Below are positions 4,966 through 59,252 of a stretch of DNA of 64,000 nucleotides, piece by piece. The translations under genes and the position numbers were made by a program. Numbering within the stretch: the stretch's first letter is position 1; every line of letters begins with the position of its first letter. This DNA comes from a plasmid, in sequence record NZ_CP124633.1; one strand, written 5' to 3'. The notes beneath the pieces were generated by a model. It was not told where the DNA came from, ran no database searches, and worked only from the letters and a program-made list of their open reading frames with translations.

Positions 4966-6300
4966 TCACTCGTCTTCGAACTCCGCCTTTCCCTTCTGGA
5001 CCATTGAGATGGGAGGTATAAAAAACATTGTCCGCTGCGCCGCCGGCATCAGGATATCTGAGGACTTGATGCTGCTGCCCTTTCGCCGCTTGGTGCCACT
5101 GTCCTTGTCGTAAACCTCGATGTCTTTGCACAGAATTGGCATGTGGAGGGCCTCGCGAACGATGCTTTCGTTGGCCATCGTGCTGTTGGCCATGCTCTTC
5201 ATCATGTCCTCGAACGTCTGTACAGGCTGTTGGTAGATCTGCCTGGGCAGCAGCTCGGAAAGCTCTCTCTCGATGCGTTTTCCGGTGACGTTATCGAAGA
5301 AATGCTCTTCACCGAAGCCAAGGTTTTGCTGATCGGTAACCTGTATATCGCGCTTAGTGTCGTACCCCACGAATAGCGCGGGCGTCATTGCGTGCGAAAA
5401 GTGGTTGCCGTACTTCCAGTGGATTTCCTTCATCACAGCGTTGGCGCGATAGCTCTTGGCGAGATGAATGAACCAGTAGGTGCGAGGGTTAGCACCAAAC
5501 GGCGTTATGAAGAATACCGTCATGAACTCTGCGCCGCTTTCTTTCAGTATGCCCTCTGCCAGGAAGCGTTGAATGAGGTGCTGCCATTCATGACGCATCG
5601 TGGCCTTGAAGGAAGGGAGTTTAGCCCACGGAATGTATTTCTCAAGGTCAATATTCTGGAGCGCCTTACGGTTTTCCTCCCGCTCAGAAAGGTAGTCAAT
5701 CAGGCTGTCAACGTTGAACGTCAGCAACACCTCAGCGTTTCTCACTTCCTGAAAGATGGCGCGGATGCTGGAGAATGGAACATCTTTGTAAGCGTACTGA
5801 TCCAACAAGAAAATTGCGCGTTGAGAGAATTTTAATTTCTTGATCTGATTTATTAGCGCAGGGAGAGCGTTGGTGAAGCGTGACTTTATCGGGAATACGT
5901 CCTTGTCTATTAAGTGCGAATATCCTTTCGCGTTAAGTACTGCGTTCAGATAATCTATGTTGTCCTTTTTGATGTCTACAAAATAGTACTTGGCAATTAC
6001 TTCGCGGTCTTGTTTTCTCAGGGTGTTAATTTCCGCAACTGTCTGGCGAACGGTCTCCAACGCGATGATCGGCGATCCATAGTGGATGCCTATACCATCA
6101 TCGTCTTTGTAAATACCCCCTCCACAGAACCCATCGATGATGCTGATTCCTATTCGAGGGATCATCTGGTTGCTCATCACGACCGTTATGTAGGAGCGAA
6201 TATAGTCCTGAATTATCTTGTGTTTGATCTTGCTGTGGGGATTAATCTGAGGATATGTCCCGGTGGAAATATTCCACTTGTACTTTTCATCCTTGGCCAT
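4966..6300 (-). CDS. TcmP-like (three-Cys-motif partner protein family) protein, 444 aa
   Basis: Low-GC ORF; N-terminal KIKHKIIQDYIRSY...IDGFCGGG pattern shared with paralog 7293..8483; adjacent to DUF5131 gene. Confidence 0.55.
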   Translation of the reverse strand: MAKDEKYKWNISTGTYPQINPHSKIKHKIIQDYIRSYITVVMSNQMIPRIGISIIDGFCGGGIYKDDDGIGIHYGSPIIALETVRQTVAEINTLRKQDREVIAKYYFVDIKKDNIDYLNAVLNAKGYSHLIDKDVFPIKSRFTNALPALINQIKKLKFSQRAIFLLDQYAYKDVPFSSIRAIFQEVRNAEVLLTFNVDSLIDYLSEREENRKALQNIDLEKYIPWAKLPSFKATMRHEWQHLIQRFLAEGILKESGAEFMTVFFITPFGANPRTYWFIHLAKSYRANAVMKEIHWKYGNHFSHAMTPALFVGYDTKRDIQVTDQQNLGFGEEHFFDNVTGKRIERELSELLPRQIYQQPVQTFEDMMKSMANSTMANESIVREALHMPILCKDIEVYDKDSGTKRRKGSSIKSSDILMPAAQRTMFFIPPISMVQKGKAEFEDE

Positions 6301-13062: not shown

Positions 13063-13666
13063 CAGGCTTGCGCCTGAGCATCGGTGGTAAGAATGCTTTC
13101 GCGGATCAGCTCACCGAGGGTGGGCTCGAGCACGTCGACCCGCAGGGCGAGTCGCCAGGCGCAGACGTTGCCGATCGTCCCGGGTAGGGCCGTCAACATC
13201 TGGTGCTGGGTGAGGACCTCCATCACCGGCTCGCGCCAGTGCTGCAGGAGGGGAGCGGACAGGTTTCCATCACCAGCGGCCAGAGCCTCTGGTGTGGATC
13301 CTCATCGCGCTGCAGGAGTGCGAAGGCGAGGTGATTGCCTCGGTCGGGCGCCGAGGCGCGCCGATCGAACAGCCAAAGATTGAGCAGGCTGCCGAACAAC
13401 GTGCCGCGGAACTGGCGGGTGGTGCGTTTCTCCAGGAGATCCTGGTTTGGGAAGACAGGTAAGCGGCGGCCGTCCACGATGATGTGGAAATGGTCGATGC
13501 CATTTTCTTCCCGGCCCAGCGTCAGCCTGGCCAGGAACTCTTGTGTCACGGTGTCGCGGCCCCAGGCCGAAAGAAAGACCAGGTTGCGCTGCTCGTCGCA
13601 CACGCAGGCGTCGACGTACAGGTCTGGGCACTCTTCGATCTGGTAGAGCGGGGTGGGACTGGGCAT
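13063..13666 (-). CDS. hypothetical protein; ORF 13223..13666 (147 aa) plus overlapping 53-aa frame (MEVLTQHQMLTALPGTIGNV...) probably one ~200-aa protein split by a C-run deletion near 13250-13253
   Basis: CAGGAGG SD before 13666 ATG; +2 frame after ctcccctcc reads ...LPLLQHWREPVMEVLTQ... continuously. Confidence 0.45.
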
Positions 13667-13757
13667 AGGAACCTCCTGGAAGGAGGAGCCACGCCGCCCT
13701 CAAGGGGCGGTGAAGCCCCTCGGGGTGTAGTCCAACTGGTGCAGGGGAGCGTGGTGG

Positions 13758-14544: not shown

Positions 14545-15336
14545 TCAGCTGGTTGACAGAGCAACGCCAATAGCAGCAGCGCTTACAGCCATTGCGCTGA
14601 TAGCCTGGTGGGTGGAACAGGTTGTAGTAGCACTCCGGGCTGCCGTGCGGCGCTCGTAGTCATCGTCTAGCGACTGATTGACCCCGGCTTTGGCTCCAAC
14701 ATGGAGAGGGCACGCTTTGCGGGTCCACACTTGTTTTTTGAAGTCGAGCTCATAGCCCAGCGCGCCGAGTCGCACACATTGTTGGCGTAGTCGCTTGCGG
14801 TCGACCGTGGTGTCCAGCTTGACGATTTCGCCTAGCGGCCAGACCGTCCCGAACAGTTCTGCATCTGCGTCTGTGTCCAGAGTGGCGGCCTGCTCTGCAG
14901 GAGCCGGAGGGTCCATACCGAAAGGCGCGTCGTCCCCGGTTGCAGCGGGGCGCAGAGGCTTCGGTTTCTGGGGCGACTTCGGCGGTGCCGCCGGTGCGGC
15001 AGTGGGTTGCTGGATCGCGGGCACTTCGTCGAGCGGATCCACCTCATTGCCAGAGAGACGCTCTGCCTCCTCGTCGCTGAGGTTGTCCACGTCGTCCAGA
15101 GTCATGCTGTCGAGCTTCGCGCGGATCTCGACGACCAGCCGGCCGCCGGTGGTGTAGTAGGAGGGACGGATCTCGGTGATGGCGAAATCACCGCGGTACT
15201 TGCCTTCGATGTGCTGGTCCAGGAGAGCGTCCTTGATGACGAACTCCCCGATCGAGGTCGAGAGCTTTCCCACGTTGAACTCGCCATTGCGACCGTTGAT
15301 GGTTCGAATGGCCAACTGGCCGGGTATGTTGATCAT
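14545..15336 (-). CDS. DUF3275-like ICE protein with Pro/Ala-rich acidic linker
   Basis: ORF 14545..15459; start taken at MINIPGQLAIRTINGRNGEF because upstream extension is R/S-rich junk. Confidence 0.5.
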   Translation of the reverse strand: MINIPGQLAIRTINGRNGEFNVGKLSTSIGEFVIKDALLDQHIEGKYRGDFAITEIRPSYYTTGGRLVVEIRAKLDSMTLDDVDNLSDEEAERLSGNEVDPLDEVPAIQQPTAAPAAPPKSPQKPKPLRPAATGDDAPFGMDPPAPAEQAATLDTDADAELFGTVWPLGEIVKLDTTVDRKRLRQQCVRLGALGYELDFKKQVWTRKACPLHVGAKAGVNQSLDDDYERRTAARSATTTCSTHQAISAMAVSAAAIGVALSTS

Positions 15337-15391
15337 GGCGTGACCTGCGAAAAGGATGATCCCGCCGAAGCGGGATCGTGGTGAGGGAGAA

Positions 15392-15742
15392 CTACTCGGT
15401 ATCCGGGTTGCCCTGGAGGCTTTCTTCCTGCAGCTCGATGCGCAGGTAGGAAGGCTCATCGGACGGCTCGACTATCGAGAGGACCAGCAGCGCGAGCGCG
15501 CGGTCCTGCCCCTCTTCCTCCTTGTGGTACAGGTGGAATTGGATGTGCTTCGCGGTCGGCTGGAGCGAAAGCTCCTGCCAGGCGGTTTGAACGACACTGG
15601 CCAGCCGGGTGCCCATCTCGTCGACCCTGGCAGGGTTGGCGAGATAGACCAGGCGCAGCCAGGCCGCGTTGGTGAGAACGATCGGGAGTTTGAGGTACGC
15701 AGCAGTGTGACCTGCGCTGGAGTGGTTGTTGAGAGAGGTCAT
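15392..15742 (-). CDS. hypothetical ICE protein (116 aa)
   Basis: ORF with GGAGAC SD. Confidence 0.5.
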   Translation of the reverse strand: MTSLNNHSSAGHTAAYLKLPIVLTNAAWLRLVYLANPARVDEMGTRLASVVQTAWQELSLQPTAKHIQFHLYHKEEEGQDRALALLVLSIVEPSDEPSYLRIELQEESLQGNPDTE

Positions 15743-15977
15743 GAGAGGTCTCCGAATACGCAGGCCTCTCCCGCGGGGATGAGGTCCCCGCGTGGGTGGG
15801 TAGGATGCACTCCATCACTTGCGTGATGCGACCGCGCTGCCGAGTGCTGTGGCGGTCTTGGGTGGGTTAGCGCTTGCGCGCCGGAGCCTTAAACCCTGGC
15901 TCCTTGGGAGGCGCTGTCAACGACAGCGAGCCAATTCGAATTCGGGGGCTGGCGGGATTTCCCGCCGGCCGGATTGC

Positions 15978-16685
15978 TCAATCGTCATAAAGCGGCAGGC
16001 CCTTGAGCGTGGGCGCGAATGGATCAAGTACCAGGAGCCGGATGTCTGCTTGTCCCGCGAGGTGAAGCAGATCGACCAGGTGTTCGTCGAGGCCGAAGTC
16101 AAGCTGTTCTTGTCGAAGAGCGGCTGCGGTCATCTCCAGGATCTCCAGACACTCATCCGTCCAAGGGGTGTTGTGCAAGCGAAAGCCCACGGCACCGTGC
16201 TCGTTACACCAGAAGAGCGATACCAACACCGAGGGCAAGCGGATTGGCATCTTGGTCGAGAACCTTTCGTAGAGGCTATTCCACGCCCTGATGGGTAGAT
16301 GTGTTTTTCTGATCTCCCAGCAGCGGTTATAACCGCCGCCGAACGAAAGGTATCGAACGACACTCTCGGCTTCGGTCAGTGAGTATTGATCTCCGATAAG
16401 CTTTTTTCTGCCGTCCTGCTCACCGTAGATGCTGTAAAGTACGTTTCTCACTATTCCTTGGTGAGGGCATTTTTCAACTCTTTCATCGTCTAAGTCTTGG
16501 GTTACCACGGCGAAATCGCCATTGAAGTAGCACTGCTCGCACTGAAAATATTCGTCTGGGAGGTGCTGCTGGGTTTCATGCAGTGCGCGGTAGCACGGTA
16601 GATTGTCGCCTTCGTCAGTGATCTGCAGGTTTCGCTCGATGCGGAAACTCTCATAGCCGCGAATAAACGGATTGAGTTGAGTCAT
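15978..16685 (-). CDS. Cys-rich hypothetical protein (CYRALHE...CEQCYFNG...KCPHQG), lower-GC cargo
   Basis: 235-aa ORF, GGAGAT SD, local drop in GC. Confidence 0.55.
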   Translation of the reverse strand: MTQLNPFIRGYESFRIERNLQITDEGDNLPCYRALHETQQHLPDEYFQCEQCYFNGDFAVVTQDLDDERVEKCPHQGIVRNVLYSIYGEQDGRKKLIGDQYSLTEAESVVRYLSFGGGYNRCWEIRKTHLPIRAWNSLYERFSTKMPIRLPSVLVSLFWCNEHGAVGFRLHNTPWTDECLEILEMTAAALRQEQLDFGLDEHLVDLLHLAGQADIRLLVLDPFAPTLKGLPLYDD

Positions 16686-16785
16686 GGGGTATCTCCGGTT
16701 GCCGGGAAGCCCATGCCCTTGGAGGCTATGGACCTCCAGGTGAGTAGGGGCGCCGAAGCGCCCAGGTGATGTCGAGTTGTTGTAG

Positions 16786-17064
16786 TTAACGCGATAGGTG
16801 TTCTTCTTTACGCCGAGCCTTCTGGTATCGCTCTACCAGGCCATAGTATTGAAGTACCGGTGATGTGCTCGAGTCGCAACCATGCTCACAGTCGGCCTGC
16901 GCCAAAGCTTCGATTGCATCTTGAATTACATAGAGCTCGATACTGAGTCCTGCATCGCCAAACTCATCAACCAAGCCTTTGCACAGAATGTACTCGAACT
17001 TGCTTTGTGCGGCTTGTACTCCGATGTTGAGTAGAGCTGGGAGCCTTTCTGGGTATGTGTTCAT
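16786..17064 (-). CDS. hypothetical protein (92 aa)
   Basis: ORF, start at MNTYPERL. Confidence 0.4.
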   Translation of the reverse strand: MNTYPERLPALLNIGVQAAQSKFEYILCKGLVDEFGDAGLSIELYVIQDAIEALAQADCEHGCDSSTSPVLQYYGLVERYQKARRKEEHLSR

Positions 17065-17168
17065 GGTGAGTTCCAATTCGTAATCAAATCGGAGAGGTCA
17101 CCTCCCAACAGGGGTGATGACCCCGTCTGGGTTGAATTAGAAGATGAACATGGGCAAAAGGGTAAAGC

Positions 17169-17366
17169 TTAATATTCCCGTTGCGTCCAAGTACCGTTGT
17201 CTAATGCCTGTTGAGCAAGATCGCGGGAGGGGTAATATTCAACCGACTCGCGCGAGGCTGGTCCTTCTTCATCAAGGGTGCCGATATAGAAGCCGGCGTT
17301 GGACATAAGAACCTGCAGCGGCAGTTCGAGACGAAGATGGGCGAGTGCCCGCTTTCCGTATTGCAT
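17169..17366 (-). CDS. hypothetical small protein (65 aa)
   Basis: start MQYGKRAL with AAGGAGA SD. Confidence 0.45.
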   Translation of the reverse strand: MQYGKRALAHLRLELPLQVLMSNAGFYIGTLDEEGPASRESVEYYPSRDLAQQALDNGTWTQREY

Positions 17367-17439
17367 GGTGATTCTCCTTTCGGTAGGAAACACCAGTCCC
17401 AAGGGGACTGAGGTCCCCTAAATGGGAAATGTTTGGCGG

Positions 17440-17598
17440 TTAGGCCAGGGCAGATACCTGGGCATTGTTGCTGGCTAGGAACAGCCAGGCGAAGTTGCAG
17501 AAATGCCTGCTGAGCAGCAACTCGTCCTCGATGTCAGAGAGGCAAACTTCCTCTACTTCCGGCAGGGCGGGCAGATCTACGATTTGGATATTGCTCAT
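17440..17598 (-). CDS. hypothetical small protein (52 aa)
   Basis: start MSNIQIVDLP with GGAGAT SD. Confidence 0.35.
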   Translation of the reverse strand: MSNIQIVDLPALPEVEEVCLSDIEDELLLSRHFCNFAWLFLASNNAQVSALA

Positions 17599-17735
17599 GA
17601 TGATCTCCAGATAATGGAGAACACCACGCCCTGGGGGAGATGGTGCCCCCCGGATGGGTATGCGATGAAGAGTGGCGCATAGCGTAGGTAGTGAAAGGCC
17701 CTCGGGATGAGGGCCGGTATTCAATCAAGCCGTGC

Positions 17736-18215
17736 TCAAGCAGCGGCTTGTTCAGCAGGGGCTGCGGGTTCACCTTGCGGTTCGCCTTGGCCTTGCTGGG
17801 CTTTTTCAGCTTCTTCCTTCGCATCGTAGACGGTGGTGCCATCTACTTTGATCCAGGAGATGAAGAGCAGCCGGCCTTTGAGACTTGCGTCGGGCCTGCC
17901 TTGTTTCTCGCCTTTCTGGTGGATGAAGGGATCCGCCCAGATATCGCCGATACGGAAGGAAATCAGAACCTTCTTCTTGGCCTCGACTGCTTCCTTGCAA
18001 CGGCGGACAAGCTTTTCAGCCTGGGCGCCGACCACTTTGCAGTCGATGTAGGAGTATTCCACGCTGTCTGCCGCGCCATGGAGGGCTGCGACGGTTACGG
18101 CGAGGAACGGTTCACCTCGGCGGATCGGTACTTCGCGGATGCGATTGAGGTAGCCGATACCGGTGGTGTGCAGGTCGAAATATTTGGCTTCTTGGGCTTG
18201 GGTGTTGTTGCTCAT
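17736..18215 (-). CDS. DUF3577/STY4534-like ICE protein
   Basis: start MSNNTQAQEAKYFDLHTTGIGYLNRIREV; Gln/Glu-rich C-terminal tail. Confidence 0.6.
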   Translation of the reverse strand: MSNNTQAQEAKYFDLHTTGIGYLNRIREVPIRRGEPFLAVTVAALHGAADSVEYSYIDCKVVGAQAEKLVRRCKEAVEAKKKVLISFRIGDIWADPFIHQKGEKQGRPDASLKGRLLFISWIKVDGTTVYDAKEEAEKAQQGQGEPQGEPAAPAEQAAA

Positions 18216-18480
18216 GATGGTTCTCCAGTTTCGTAAGCGAAAGCGGAGAAACACCTTGCCCGTCAGGGAAAAGTATTCCCCGCATGGGTCGGTATTGGGA
18301 GGTAAATCTGAGGGAGAGGGCTTCCATCAACCTGTGGTTGATTGATCGCGCTACCGGAAGCTGGTGCGATCTTGGGTTCGATCTACACGGAAGTCCGTGT
18401 CGTAGTCTTTCAGATCATGACTACTGGGGGAGGGTTGCCGACAACGTCAGCAGCTCACGGGGTAAAGGATGGGCAGGGGA
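18216..18480 (-). repeat. ~265-bp leader element, copy A (homologous to 19317..19570)
   Basis: shared blocks gcggagaaacac, attccccgcatgggtcgg, gctaccggaagct, ggtcttgggttcgatc, gttgccgacaacgtcagcag. Confidence 0.5.
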
Positions 18481-18504
18481 AAAATGAATGTCAATACCCT
18501 TGAA

Positions 18505-18536
18505 ATGAAAAAAGCGCCCAGTGTTGGGCGCTTTCA
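18505..18536. terminator. bidirectional intrinsic terminator
   Basis: aaagcgccca-gtgt-tgggcgcttt perfect 10-bp stem flanked by A-run and T-run. Confidence 0.55.
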
Positions 18537-18539
18537 TGG

Positions 18540-18674
18540 TCAATGATGACGGGGAAGAATCCGATGTTTTTGGCACCAGGTCTTGACTTGAGGCCAACTG
18601 AACCAGAGGGCTATGCCGGAGCAGATAACCACCAGGCTGGTCATGATGATCATGCCGAACTCGGTCTGGGACAT
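18540..18674 (-). CDS. small hydrophobic peptide (44 aa), tentative
   Basis: own translation MSQTEFGMIIMTSLVVICSGIALWFSW...; below ORF-track size cutoff. Confidence 0.3.
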   Translation of the reverse strand: MSQTEFGMIIMTSLVVICSGIALWFSWPQVKTWCQKHRILPRHH

Positions 18675-18675
18675 T

Positions 18676-18852
18676 TCACTCCTCCTCCTCGGTGAGAGCG
18701 ATACCTATGAGCCAGATTACCATACCCATGACGAAAGCATATGCCGTCAGCAAGCGGTGCTCGCTGAGGAAGATGCCCACCAGGCTCGCCGCAACGGCAG
18801 TGGTACCGATTTTTCGTAGATCGTCTGCGAATGCAGCACGCTTCGATTTCAT
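18676..18852 (-). CDS. small membrane protein (58 aa) ending TEEEE, tentative
   Basis: own translation MKSKRAAFADDLRKIGTTAVAASLVGIFLSEHRLLTAYAFVMGMVIWLIGIALTEEEE; GAGGAA SD. Confidence 0.35.
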   Translation of the reverse strand: MKSKRAAFADDLRKIGTTAVAASLVGIFLSEHRLLTAYAFVMGMVIWLIGIALTEEEE

Positions 18853-18926
18853 GGTTTTCCTCGATGAATGCCGGAAAACCGTCCCCGCGGGAAGGTTTCC
18901 CGGCAGGGGTTGGTGAGAGGTACGGA

Positions 18927-19316
18927 TCAGCAGGTCAGCGGATCAACCGGTGCGATCAGTTGATCGAGGGAGCCCAGCTTGAGCTCCTTCCTGACCGGTG
19001 TTTTGGCCTTGGGTGTCGCCTTGGCCGGTTTGGATTTGCGCGCGCGCTTGGGCTTTTGCACTTCGCGCGTGTTGGCCAGATACCAGTCATTGAGGTTGAC
19101 TTTCTTCAACCGGACGATCGCCGGGACGTCGCTGATGTGTTCCAGCTCTTTGGCGGTCGGGCCAGCAAGCATGGCGGGCTCGATACGCTGGACACTCGAC
19201 GCAACCGGTGCTTGTGCTTGCACTACGACCGGAGGGCGACTGAGCGCTCTGCGGAACTCACGCACAACACTGCCGAGGGCAAAGCCGATTTCGAAGCTGG
19301 TGGATTGCTTGGACAT
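18927..19316 (-). CDS. Lys-rich putative DNA-binding protein (129 aa)
   Basis: GCAGGAGAAAC SD; C-terminal KPKRARKSKPAKATPKAKTPVRK. Confidence 0.45.
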   Translation of the reverse strand: MSKQSTSFEIGFALGSVVREFRRALSRPPVVVQAQAPVASSVQRIEPAMLAGPTAKELEHISDVPAIVRLKKVNLNDWYLANTREVQKPKRARKSKPAKATPKAKTPVRKELKLGSLDQLIAPVDPLTC

Positions 19317-19570
19317 GGTGTTTCTCCTGCAGGTTGAGGGTGCGGAGAAAACACTGGCCCTGGCGGGGAAGTGGATTCCCCGCTGGGTTGCGGAAGGGAG
19401 CTTCTATCGACCGAGGCCGACCGACCGTGCTACCAGAAGCTATACGGTCTTGGGTTGGATCAACACGCTGGGCTGTGCTGCAGCACTTCGGATCCGAGCT
19501 GCATGGGGCATGTCGCTGACAACGTCAGCAGATCACGCGCTCATCATCGAAGCGGGGGGCGAAAGTGTCA
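19317..19570 (-). repeat. ~255-bp leader element, copy B (homologous to 18216..18480)
   Basis: see copy A. Confidence 0.5.
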
Positions 19571-20235
19571 AGGTCAAGCAGGAGGGGGAGCGGATGCAGG
19601 ATGCAGCGGGCGGAGAGCGAGGGCGGAAGAGCGCGGCTGGTAGAAACCCTGTCAAAGGTTTCCCCAGCCGTGTCTGGAAGGGGAGTCAAGTGAGCCACCT
19701 GTGGTTGAATCGTCGATCCCTGGGCATTGATCGTCTCGATCCCATCACCCGGCCATTATCGTGGCTTGGCCAGCAAACAGTAGGCACGCATCCGCGTACA
19801 AAGGGAGCCCTGCGTATCACCGGCGGGCCACCGGCAGGGAGAAGGATCCCGATGGGTAGCCTGATGGTCCTGGAGCAGGAGCATCAGGCTACCCATGGAG
19901 AGGGAAAAGGAGGGGCCGTAACACCAGTACGACCCTTAAATCGAGGAAACACCGAACCTCTTGAGAACCCTATGTGCCTTTAAACTCGCTCGACACGAGT
20001 TGACGGCTGCATGACAAGCAAAAGAACAGGGAGACACAGGGAGAATTCTCAACCAGATCCGCACGCCCCACCCGGTGTTGTAGCGTGCTTACGGTTTGGC
20101 GATGAGGCGAACCTGCATCACCAGGGCGCTACTGATGACCGTCAGTAGCCAGCGGGGTGAAATCAAAGTTGATGGCATTATGTGTTCAGAAGGCCGGTTT
20201 ATCAAGCAGCGCCGGGGTTTACTGGCTTCTGGAGG

Positions 20236-20673
20236 TTATTTGACCGCGACCACCGCGCCCTCGGGGATGGGAGCAGGGAGCGCAATGGCAGTGGCTCCGA
20301 GGCGGCGTGTGACTAACTGGCCGTTGCGCCTGACGCCAACTAGGTCGGATTCCGTACCGGCATCCACGGCTGCCGCCAGCCCTGCCGGCGGCGAGGCGAT
20401 GAAGGCGTAGCTGGTGCCGGCGGCGATGTAGCCCTGAAGCCGCACTGGCTTGCGGAACCAGGCCGGTAGACCAAGAGCGGAGTCCGCCGGCGAACCGCTG
20501 AAACCGGGGTTGGCGTGTGCGTACTCCGCCAGCCTGGCGCGGTAGAGCAGCAAGCTCCTGGCCAGGGTGTCGACCTCGGCCAGTTCGGCGCTCGAGGTCG
20601 CGTGGTCGCTTTGTACACTCAGCCAGGTCCCGGTGAGCAGGGCGAGCAATAGGGCAATCCAGAGCAGCGGCAT
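20236..20673 (-). CDS. pilM: type IVb pilus protein PilM
   Basis: last gene of R64/PAPI-1-type pil cluster; N-terminal TM MPLLWIALLLALLTGTWL. Confidence 0.65.
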   Translation of the reverse strand: MPLLWIALLLALLTGTWLSVQSDHATSSAELAEVDTLARSLLLYRARLAEYAHANPGFSGSPADSALGLPAWFRKPVRLQGYIAAGTSYAFIASPPAGLAAAVDAGTESDLVGVRRNGQLVTRRLGATAIALPAPIPEGAVVAVK

Positions 20674-39937: not shown

Positions 39938-40426
39938 TTACATGGGGATGTCGTCGTCGAAGGCGCTGTCGTAGTCCTGCTGCGAGCGCGCATCCTGCTG
40001 AGTAGGTTGCGGCGGCACCTGCCGAGTCTGCTGATGCTGGGTCGATTGGCCATTGGTCGACGGCAACAGGGTGACCTCGGCCAGGCGATGCGGAAGGATG
40101 GAAATGCGCGAGGCTTCGACCTTCAGCGCCTGGACTTCTTCGCCTGACTCTTTGTCGGGCCAGCGGTCCATGATCGCCCGGCCTTCGACCTTGACGCGCA
40201 TCCCTTTCGCGAACAGTTCGGCGAAACGCTGGGCATCCTGATGCCACCACTCGACGCTGCACCAGAAGCCGCCGCGATCCTTGTAGCCACCTTGGCCATC
40301 GGGAATCGAGTTGTCGAACATCACGTTCAGTCGCAGCAACTGCCGCGGGGGATTGTTGCCGTTCGGGAAGCTGCGGTGCTCCGGCGCCGAGCCGATGTTG
40401 CCTTCCCAGAAGACGGGGGTAGCCAT
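39938..40426 (-). CDS. ssb: single-stranded DNA-binding protein
   Basis: OB-fold N-domain, Gln-rich linker, acidic tail DDDIPM. Confidence 0.85.
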   Translation of the reverse strand: MATPVFWEGNIGSAPEHRSFPNGNNPPRQLLRLNVMFDNSIPDGQGGYKDRGGFWCSVEWWHQDAQRFAELFAKGMRVKVEGRAIMDRWPDKESGEEVQALKVEASRISILPHRLAEVTLLPSTNGQSTQHQQTRQVPPQPTQQDARSQQDYDSAFDDDIPM

Positions 40427-59186: not shown

Positions 59187-59252
59187 GGCTTTTAACCAAT
59201 TGGTTGGCTTTTAACCAATTGGTCGTAGGTTCGAATCCTACACGACCCACCA
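59187..59252 (+). other. att core: 3' 49 nt of tRNA-Lys(UUU) (TTGGCTTTTAACCAATTGGTCGTAGGTTCGAATCCTACACGACCCACCA) preceded by a 17-19-nt tandem duplicate of the anticodon-arm segment; no 5' half of the tRNA
   Basis: read directly; anticodon loop CTTTTAA, T-arm GGTTCGAATCC, CCA end. Confidence 0.8.

Follow-up and report, generated by a model that had tools for sequence, protein, structure and literature searches.

Copies of the radC RNA motif in the leaders of a Pseudomonas aeruginosa pKLC102/PAPI-1-family element, and a downstream module predicted to pair the Shine-Dalgarno sequence

The DNA considered here is a stretch of 64,000 nucleotides (nt) of the plasmid record NZ_CP124633.1, referred to below as the window, and it is part of a P. 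aeruginosa integrative conjugative element (ICE) of the pKLC102/PAPI-1 family. Its region 15300-19700 is 95.7% identical to pKLC102, which is typed as MOBH/MPF_G, and 96-97% identical to other P. aeruginosa plasmid records. In this part of the window, all genes are read from the minus strand, and the ranges 18216-18480 and 19317-19570 are the upstream regions, or leaders, of a gene encoding a DUF3577 protein and of a gene encoding a Lys-rich protein. A third homologous copy of the leader, overlooked in a preliminary description of this sequence, is found at 15807-15944. Both leaders and this third copy are copies of the known radC RNA motif (Rfam entry RF01754) and are nothing different in kind; they probably function as cis-acting leaders that hold translation off by default. 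The cores of the three copies (c19, c18 and c15) and the two genes are the following.

19400-19547, minus strand: radC core c19, comprising P1, P2, P3, PX, P4 and the pseudoknots PK1 and PK2 (Rfam, 76.9 bits; covariation)
18927-19316, minus strand: Lys-rich gene of 129 amino acids (aa), the first gene of the c19 unit (no Pfam family)
18320-18469, minus strand: radC core c18 (Rfam, 96.9 bits)
17736-18215, minus strand: DUF3577 gene (Pfam PF12101, E=7.7e-55)
15807-15944, minus strand: radC core c15 (Rfam, 81.8 bits)

The DUF3577 protein is named 'STY4534 family ICE replication protein' by NCBI and is annotated in this way in pKLC102. When its AlphaFold model (predicted local distance difference test score 76) is compared with known structures, the closest ones are the oligonucleotide-binding folds of SSB and PriB, with weak E-values of 6e-4 to 2e-2 and a consistent ranking. 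A conventional SSB gene is also present in the element, at 39938-40426, besides this DUF3577 gene with its predicted SSB/PriB-like fold. Homologues of the Lys-rich protein (pattern 'MS..S..FG.ALGTV.REF') are found behind a radC core in many loci. The leader-bearing cluster of 6 kb encodes, together with the SSB-like DUF3577 protein, a DUF3275 protein and small unknown proteins.

The three matches to RF01754 (radC RNA, type Cis-reg) were obtained in an Rfam scan of the whole window at curated thresholds, the gathering score of this family being 40 bits; all are full length, covering model positions 1-149 of 149, and all are on the minus strand. The radC motif was described in 2010 by Weinberg et al. 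(PMC2864571) as a likely RNA that is probably cis-regulatory and possibly a switch, with the rating 'switch: ? complex', which occurs in the 5' untranslated regions (UTRs) of genes acting on DNA and is absent from phages. The founding alignment (radC.sto) has three entries from P. aeruginosa PA14 and three from PA7. One of the PA14 entries, NC_008463.1/5292463-5293000, has a 102-nt flank that matches the window upstream of 15942 without a difference; the founding alignment therefore already included the PAPI-1 orthologues of these elements. No radC core was detected by the covariance model R1 (described below) in the 80 viral loci listed, from 120 stretches matching a P1 15-mer, in agreement with the remark of Weinberg et al. 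on phages, and a phage origin of the copies was rejected on this basis. BLAST searches for distant copies returned only relatives from Pseudomonas and Stutzerimonas among plasmids, and none in Escherichia coli genomes.

The two leaders noted at the outset share 77% column identity over about 285 nt when 18216-18500 and 19317-19600 (minus strand) are aligned by MAFFT, and the three ordered blocks that had been reported as common to both are all found in the window sequence. The block GACAACGTCAGCAG is exact at 18440-18453 and at 19518-19531, and with up to two mismatches it has four matches in the window versus 0.68 expected by chance. The block ATTCCCCGC(A)TGGGT is at 18275-18289, and the second leader has the same block minus the spacer base; the block GCGGAGAAACAC is at 18243-18254, with one additional A in the second leader. 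On the gene strand, the first block corresponds to the P1 hairpin of the radC motif, the second to the 5' arm of a hairpin named here P5, and the third to the strand complementary to the Shine-Dalgarno (SD) sequence, the anti-SD strand. The similar beginnings of the two proteins (MSNNTQ and MSKQST), also pointed out earlier, do not extend to homology, as BLASTP gives no alignment between them. The explanation that the leaders are a functionless leftover of a tandem duplication is favoured by the proximity of both copies only; a simple tandem gene duplication was part of what, according to the preliminary description, would speak against its proposal. The similarity ends at the start codons, and in dozens of species the same leader, with compensatory changes, stands ahead of genes from at least five families that are not homologous; the covariation contradicts a functionless leftover. 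The proteins downstream of the two leaders are unrelated, and the similarity therefore does not result from a tandem gene duplication; this explanation was rejected, its probability being close to nil.

The conservation of the core fold was analyzed using 80 genome loci around DUF3577 homologues, which are nearly all from Pseudomonas, Stutzerimonas and Azotobacter, with a few titled Streptomyces or Leclercia. As a three-copy MAFFT alignment misplaced the third copy, the models were made from two copies: R1 was built from two window copies and the Rfam structure, and the remaining copies were aligned by Infernal. In the window and 79 loci, 136 radC copies are found, one to four per source and all in gene orientation. 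An inspection of covariation in aligned related copies had been proposed in the preliminary description, and in the alignment of these 136 copies the helices do covary. With the Rfam structure, 93% of the cells are paired and double changes are seen in 30 of 35 pairs, which is reached in 0 of 500 shuffles; in the control in which the structures are slid by 1-3 columns, 20-53% of the cells are paired.

A mutual-information scan of this alignment revealed two further helices, PX and PK2, which are present neither in the search model nor in the Rfam model nor in the structure line of Weinberg et al. Their positions in c18 are as follows.

18371-18366 with 18349-18344, minus strand: helix PX, GAUCGC:GCGAUC (99.2% paired, compensatory changes in 5 of 6 pairs)
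18361-18356 with 18325-18320, minus strand: pseudoknot PK2, GCUUCC:GGAAGC (98% paired, compensatory changes in 4 of 6 pairs)

PK2 crosses PX, generating a pseudoknot, and in both helices wobble pairs are common and A-C cells are rare. The 3-base pair (bp) outer stem of P4 is weak (77.8% paired), and PX and PK2 take its place. The pseudoknot PK1, in which the P2 loop pairs with the strand following P3 (SS_cons_1 of the 2010 alignment), is paired in 92.4% of the cells, with covariation in all four of its pairs. When PX, PK2 and PK1 are included, 95.3% of the cells of the revised structure are paired and 42 of 48 pairs covary. The core, with its two pseudoknots and conserved junction bases, is a complex, aptamer-like fold, in which the longest helix is at most 11 bp. 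In the study by Rivas (2020; PMC7657543), radC is listed among the families whose database structure misses covarying pairs, and PX and PK2 may already be among the covarying pairs of that study. As a separate observation, in the minimum-energy fold of the c18 leader the 5'-terminal CGUGA (18460-18456) pairs with UCAUG at the start codon (18218-18213) instead of forming the outer P1; CAUG is the consensus of both outer P1 strands, and a 5'-3' closing pairing is possible.

The 136-copy alignment also reports on the strand that folds: it has 471 G-U or U-G cells versus 62 A-C or C-A cells, which assigns the fold to the gene-sense strand, be it in the form of RNA or, in principle, of single-stranded DNA with the sense sequence.

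A TTGAC(A) box is found in 112 of 128 distinct upstream flanks, and in 104 of these it precedes the inner P1 hairpin by 41-44 nt. The spacer is mostly 17 nt and is followed by a second hexamer such as GATGAT, CATTCT or TATACA, and this -10 hexamer coincides with the first bases of the Rfam radC model. As the promoter is at a fixed distance, transcription is expected to start at the first base of P1, which for c19 is predicted at about 19536-19537 and for c18 at about 18458-18459. The transcription signals of the two units are the following.

19543-19571, minus strand: predicted sigma-70-type promoter of the Lys-rich unit, TTGACA-17-GATGAT (10 of 12 consensus matches, conserved spacing)
18510-18535, minus strand: intrinsic-terminator-like hairpin closing the c19 unit and directly preceding the c18 promoter (11 pairs, of which 6 are G-C, then TTCATTTC)
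18466-18494, minus strand: predicted sigma-70-type promoter of the DUF3577 unit, TTGACA at 18494-18489, a 17-nt spacer and CATCCT at 18471-18466 (sequence, conservation across loci)

Similar intrinsic terminators are found ahead of many copies in the related loci.

The strand preference and the promoter layout bear on the idea that these elements are Frpo-like promoters or priming sites, which would fold as single-stranded DNA on the transferred strand and let establishment genes be expressed early in the recipient. For this kind of element, it was the alternative with the greatest appeal. Plasmids are known to have such promoters (PMC11541004, PMC9849209) and, like Frpo and ssi, the radC leaders are structured elements that recur on a conjugative element ahead of genes of the establishment type. 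The genes concerned are of the leading-region type (SSB-like protein, DNA methyltransferase, helicase), and with the one-strand gene layout the orientation alone is no argument against a function of a DNA strand. However, this idea needs a fold of the template strand, in which the 471 G-U cells would turn into A-C mismatches and which is favoured by 62 cells, whereas the radC fold is on the gene-sense strand. Also, the -35 and -10 boxes, next to each other with their 17-nt spacer, both precede all helices, as in an ordinary duplex promoter, instead of being placed inside a long hairpin; the fold ends in an SD-pairing helix, which is meaningful in mRNA only; and an RNA having the predicted 5' end is abundant in non-mating PA14 cultures (PMC3460626). 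On the strand test and the promoter layout, a single-stranded DNA promoter of this type is not supported and was rejected as extremely improbable; a priming site on the sense strand is still formally conceivable.

A common operator was also among the proposals of the preliminary description, and it has been considered that the conserved blocks serve a transcription factor of the element as DNA operators, the RNA folds being incidental. The perfect inverted repeat GCTGACGTTGTCAGC just past the transcription start would be such an operator: the inner P1 hairpin, at about +8 to +22 of the conserved promoter, has a nearly invariant sequence, the dyad symmetry is kept in its main variant GCTGTCGTTGACAGC, and the element encodes AcaB-like and Rha-like regulators. 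Against this, all other helices vary in sequence yet keep their pairing, which is not explained by a protein-DNA site, and the departures from the inner P1 sequence are G-U wobbles (about 20 cells), with only 2 non-pairs. An operator explanation in this strict form is very unlikely, and an operator inside P1 could coexist with an RNA function.

The published transcriptome of PA14 provides data on these leaders. In Table S6 of Wurtzel et al. 2012 (PMC3460626), the small RNA PA14sr_131 is listed at 5290034-5290160 on the plus strand, with a length of 127 nt, 1013 reads per kilobase per million (RPKM) at 28 C and 1123 RPKM at 37 C (about 1.1 fold), and without the remark 'TSS not detected'. Using the 44-aa gene PA14_59390 (window 18540-18674) as the coordinate anchor, PA14sr_131 would map to 18458-18332 on the minus strand, that is, to the c18 core, so that the RNA would begin at the first base of P1, 7-8 nt past the -10 hexamer, a mapping that rests on gene anchors, is possibly off by 1-2 nt, and in a longer-distance check is off by 5 nt. 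According to Table S2 of the same study (PMC3460626), the coding regions that follow these leaders are higher at 37 C: the DUF3577 gene PA14_59400 is up 4.1 fold at 37 C versus 28 C (52 to 198 RPKM), and PA14_59410, PA14_59430 and PA14_59380 are up 3.6, 3.4 and 2.2 fold, respectively. The leader RNA is therefore present at about 1000 RPKM, 5-20 times the level of the DUF3577 coding region. The constant level of the leader RNA together with the rising levels of the coding RNAs fits with translation-dependent attenuation or decay downstream of the core and does not reveal the signal itself.

An antisense RNA, PA14sr_130 (99 nt, about 480 RPKM, with a terminator; PMC3460626), maps to about 18415-18513 on the plus strand. 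In this position it would cover P1-P2 of the c18 leader and be directed at the hairpin at 18510-18535; TAGTCT, upstream of it at 18403-18408, is a weak promoter candidate.

The abundance of PA14sr_131 raises the possibility that the core is mainly a stable small RNA acting in trans and that its association with a downstream gene is secondary. The double-pseudoknot core would resist nucleases, and the linker that follows it is C-rich and G-poor (43% C and 12% G, versus 30% and 27% in the background), resembling a Rho loading site. On the other hand, every one of the 136 cores precedes a start codon by 60-200 nt, shares its orientation and is accompanied by an SD-pairing module, and the accumulation of leader fragments is common for cis-acting riboswitches too. 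A mainly trans-acting RNA, which is compatible with a cis-acting leader, is considered unlikely. Concerning the small RNA proposed in the preliminary description, an abundant RNA of 127 nt in PA14 indeed coincides with the core of the DUF3577 leader, and this proposal is therefore also partly right.

The part between the core and the start codon consists, in every leader, of this linker, the hairpin P5 and the helix P6. The general form of P5 is CCC-N-GCGGGGAA...UUCCCCGC-N-GGG, and in P6 the anti-SD strand pairs with the SD sequence and the bases up to the AUG. These 3' modules were described by a second covariance model, R2, which consists of P5 plus P6, and those of the three window copies are the following.

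19314-19390, minus strand: 3' module of c19 (R2, 91.2 bits; both helices are recovered in minimum-energy folds)
18213-18291, minus strand: 3' module of c18 (R2, 42.5 bits; folds)
15740-15806, minus strand: 3' module of c15 (fold; weak R2 match, E=0.68)

In c19, P5 is CCC-A-GCGGGGAA...TTCCCCGC-CA-GGG, and in P6 GTGTTTTCTCC pairs with GGAGAAACAC (SD and flank), up to the ATG at 19316. In c18, P5 extends over about 18288-18259, the anti-SD strand GTGTTTCTCCGC is at 18254-18243, the SD sequence GGAG is at 18226-18223, and the ATG is at 18215; the predicted unpaired probability of this SD sequence is 0.007. In c15, P5 is GCGGGGA..TCCCCGC and in P6 GAGAGG pairs with CCTCTC, adjoining the ATG at 15742 of a 116-aa gene (15392-15742).

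The SD flanks differ between gene classes, and the partner strand follows these changes, as seen when comparing the pairs GUGUUUCUCC with GGAGAAACAC, CAGGCCUC with GAGGUCUG, GGUCUCC with GGAGACC, and GUGUAUCUCC with GGAGAUACA. For the SD core, the predicted unpaired probability has a median of 0.003, versus 0.20 when the upstream sequence is shuffled, in 119 leaders that are related and non-independent. The z-scores of the full-leader folds are -3.4 and -3.5, the latter for c18. The same P5 and SD hairpin is seen by eye, beyond the annotated motif, in the Burkholderiales and metagenomic flanks in the file of Weinberg et al. Altogether, the suggestion made from the two leaders alone, that they share a structured 5' UTR, is borne out by the full-length Rfam matches, the covariation in 136 copies, the G-U strand signal, the promoter at a fixed distance and the SD-pairing helix. 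In one large clade of DUF3577 genes whose products begin with 'MAHAN...', the radC core is about 200 nt from the start codon and a conserved extra segment of about 100 nt is inserted between the core and P5; this arrangement is at about 5657-6003 in each of the loci L031-L081.

A helix that covers the SD sequence could also be an RNA thermometer, in which the helix would melt at host temperature and the genes would be on at 37 C. This is in agreement with the coding RNAs of PA14, which increase 2.2-4.1 fold from 28 C to 37 C with the leader RNA unchanged (PMC3460626). However, the predicted SD pairing of the window leaders is essentially constant from 20 to 50 C, the 140-nt double-pseudoknot core would be superfluous, and the temperature effect could be indirect. 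The helices are at least 10 bp long, with -13 to -17 kcal/mol, and the known zipper-type thermometers are far less stable than this. A simple melting thermometer is not supported by these predicted thermodynamics and appears quite improbable.

The 3' module is also found without a core. In the same sequences, R2 has 210 matches at E up to 0.1, all in gene orientation, and of the best 150 matches 96 are after a radC core and 54 stand alone. The covariation in the R2 alignment is moderate, with double changes in 16 of 19 pairs versus 8.6 in shuffles. With the filters off, there are eight matches in the window at E<0.01, all on the minus strand and all at 13.6-19.4 kb, and the 3' module of c15 is a weak ninth one. 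The stand-alone modules are the following, where ORF denotes an open reading frame.

18850-18912, minus strand: stand-alone P5-P6 ahead of a 58-aa membrane-like ORF at 18676-18852 (R2 E=0.00045, fold)
17596-17657, minus strand: stand-alone P5-P6 ahead of a small ORF starting at 17598 (R2 E=0.0011, fold)
17364-17425, minus strand: stand-alone P5-P6 ahead of a 65-aa ORF at 17169-17366 (R2 E=0.003, fold)
17062-17134, minus strand: stand-alone P5-P6 ahead of a 92-aa ORF at 16786-17064 (R2 E=0.0081)
16683-16743, minus strand: stand-alone P5-P6 ahead of a DUF5983-domain gene at 15978-16685 (R2 E=0.0044, fold)
13664-13728, minus strand: stand-alone P5-P6 ahead of a 147-aa gene at 13223-13666 (R2 E=2.3e-05, fold)

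It follows from this distribution that the core heads operons and that the SD-hiding module precedes most cistrons of the cluster, and the 6-kb cluster therefore looks like one post-transcriptional regulon.

A cis-acting radC leader that by default holds translation off is the probable function that these data point to. The promoter-bearing copies c18 and c19 are four-part units, consisting of the promoter, a core of about 140 nt at the 5' end of the transcript, the C-rich linker and the 3' module. In the proposed off state, P5 and P6 would both be formed, the SD sequence would be paired, and the initiation of translation would be blocked. In the proposed on state, the P5 arm would pair with the anti-SD strand, and the ribosome-binding site would be freed. 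Transcripts that are not translated would be cut short or degraded after the core and, because of this loss of sequence downstream, the core would accumulate as a stable short RNA. The analysis itself establishes that the copies belong to the radC family, their structure and strand, the conservation of the promoter and the predicted pairing of the SD sequence, whereas the 5' end and the abundance of the leader RNA and a control after initiation are taken from the PA14 literature. The on/off switching, the role assigned to the core and the trigger, which could be a protein, a ligand or another factor, are the conjectural parts of this mechanism. The pairing required for the on state is available in the sequence: the anti-SD strand is complementary to the 5' arm and loop of P5, for example GCGGGGAAUUCACU with AGUGUUUCUCCGC, over 12-13 bp and with -15 to -20 kcal/mol. 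The pairing of the P5 arm and loop with the anti-SD strand of the same leader has a mean of -15.0 kcal/mol, versus -11.6 kcal/mol with anti-SD strands of other classes, the own one being better in 79 of 86 cases.

Several points weigh against a translational leader of this kind. For the loop-only part of the alternative pairing the preference is modest, the own pairing being better in 55 of 79 cases. In the predictions, the stability of the off state far exceeds that of the on state and, as the SD pairing is also essentially constant with temperature, a switch would need a factor. No covariation couples the core to the 3' module: the mutual information over 88 joined leaders consists of two-clade correlations without stacked pairs, and the core and the 3' module may act independently. 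Copy c15 has no upstream TTGACA box, lies 34 nt past the stop codon of the preceding gene, and has an SD sequence that is predicted to be only partly paired. The comparison loci are all Pseudomonas-type elements and are not independent samples, and the placement of PA14sr_131 has the tolerance given above. A literature search for a functional study of radC RNA found none, returning the 2010 discovery paper and one structure-prediction paper.

A more elaborate version can be put forward tentatively, with less than even expectation that it holds. In this version the radC leader would be a factor-responsive two-part switch, in which a double-pseudoknot core, present as a stable RNA, is combined with a reusable P5/anti-SD module before almost every cistron, so gating the translation of the establishment and replication genes of the ICE and, via Rho or decay, the full-length mRNA. 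The switch might be triggered by a protein that the element encodes, such as the SSB-like DUF3577 protein acting on the leader of its own gene, or by a temperature-linked host signal.

When the window copies are compared with the published radC motif (PMC2864571), the helices P1-P4 and the P2-loop pseudoknot are common to both. Beyond the published motif are PX and PK2, which replace the weak outer P4 stem, the promoter -10 box in the first model bases, and the P5 and anti-SD module downstream of the published boundary. The leaders resemble translational riboswitches and protein-binding leaders, as a pseudoknotted 5' domain is followed by an SD-pairing helix with a competing anti-SD pairing. 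The C-rich linker and the truncated leader RNA recall riboswitches that act also through Rho. No covariation was found between the core and the platform, and the platform often occurs without a core, which is unusual for a riboswitch. Another system to compare with is the IncI plasmid ColIb-P9, for which Asano and Mizobuchi reportedly described a pseudoknot-activated translation of repZ that depends on a leader peptide being translated and is prevented by an antisense RNA. This is also a conjugative element in which the loop of an upstream hairpin is complementary to a sequence by the structured ribosome-binding site, which could be opened by pairing of the loop. Unlike repZ, however, 123 of 124 radC leaders are without an ATG ORF of at least 8 codons with an SD-like sequence, which would encode a leader peptide, and the antisense PA14sr_130 covers P1-P2 and not the P5 loop. 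The layout of duplex promoters outside the helices, by which the leaders differ from Frpo and ssi, has been discussed above.

The other genes of the window are nearly all on the same strand as the cluster. Along the minus strand the order is DnaB, NdpA-like, Dam methylase, DUF2857, AcaB-like, Rha-like, SSB and topoisomerase III, which is followed by the type IVb pilus cluster, the leader-bearing cluster, and then a DUF6094 methyltransferase and an SNF2 helicase. A stretch of about 660 nt between pilM and the c19 promoter has no convincing gene. At its pilM end maps PA14sr_128 (222 nt, about 3000 RPKM, with a terminator; PMC3460626), at about 20113-20334 on the minus strand, covering the 3' end of pilM and the adjoining downstream region. 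Within this gene-poor stretch, 19845-19903 is a nearly perfect hairpin of about 20 bp (GGGTAGCCTGATG...CATCAGGCTACCC); the 181 nt around it have a fold z-score of -5.0, and Rfam gives a spurious sub-threshold microRNA match on both strands. At 59187-59249, on the plus strand, is a partial tRNA (Rfam, 31.3 bits) that has a Lys (UUU) anticodon loop and the 3' end, the D-arm region being missing. ARAGORN finds no intact tRNA in the window, and the partial one is probably the remnant of the tRNA-Lys attachment site typical of pKLC102/PAPI-1 elements.

To identify these leaders as radC RNA is a rediscovery, Rfam having listed this motif since 2010. What the analysis contributes is modest and can be tested: the helix PX and the pseudoknot PK2, the promoter, a module that hides the SD sequence and is reused throughout the cluster, and the link to the PA14 transcripts. 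The element is an informative setting for a motif that is still without an assigned function, as three copies head three operons, an SD-hiding helix follows, and the module is reused; the published PA14 data agree with a control that acts once transcription has started. A conserved RNA is in this way turned into a concrete model that can be tested by mutation, and the model concerns how elements of the pKLC102/PAPI-1 type, which carry virulence and resistance genes in P. aeruginosa, may restrain their replication and establishment genes.

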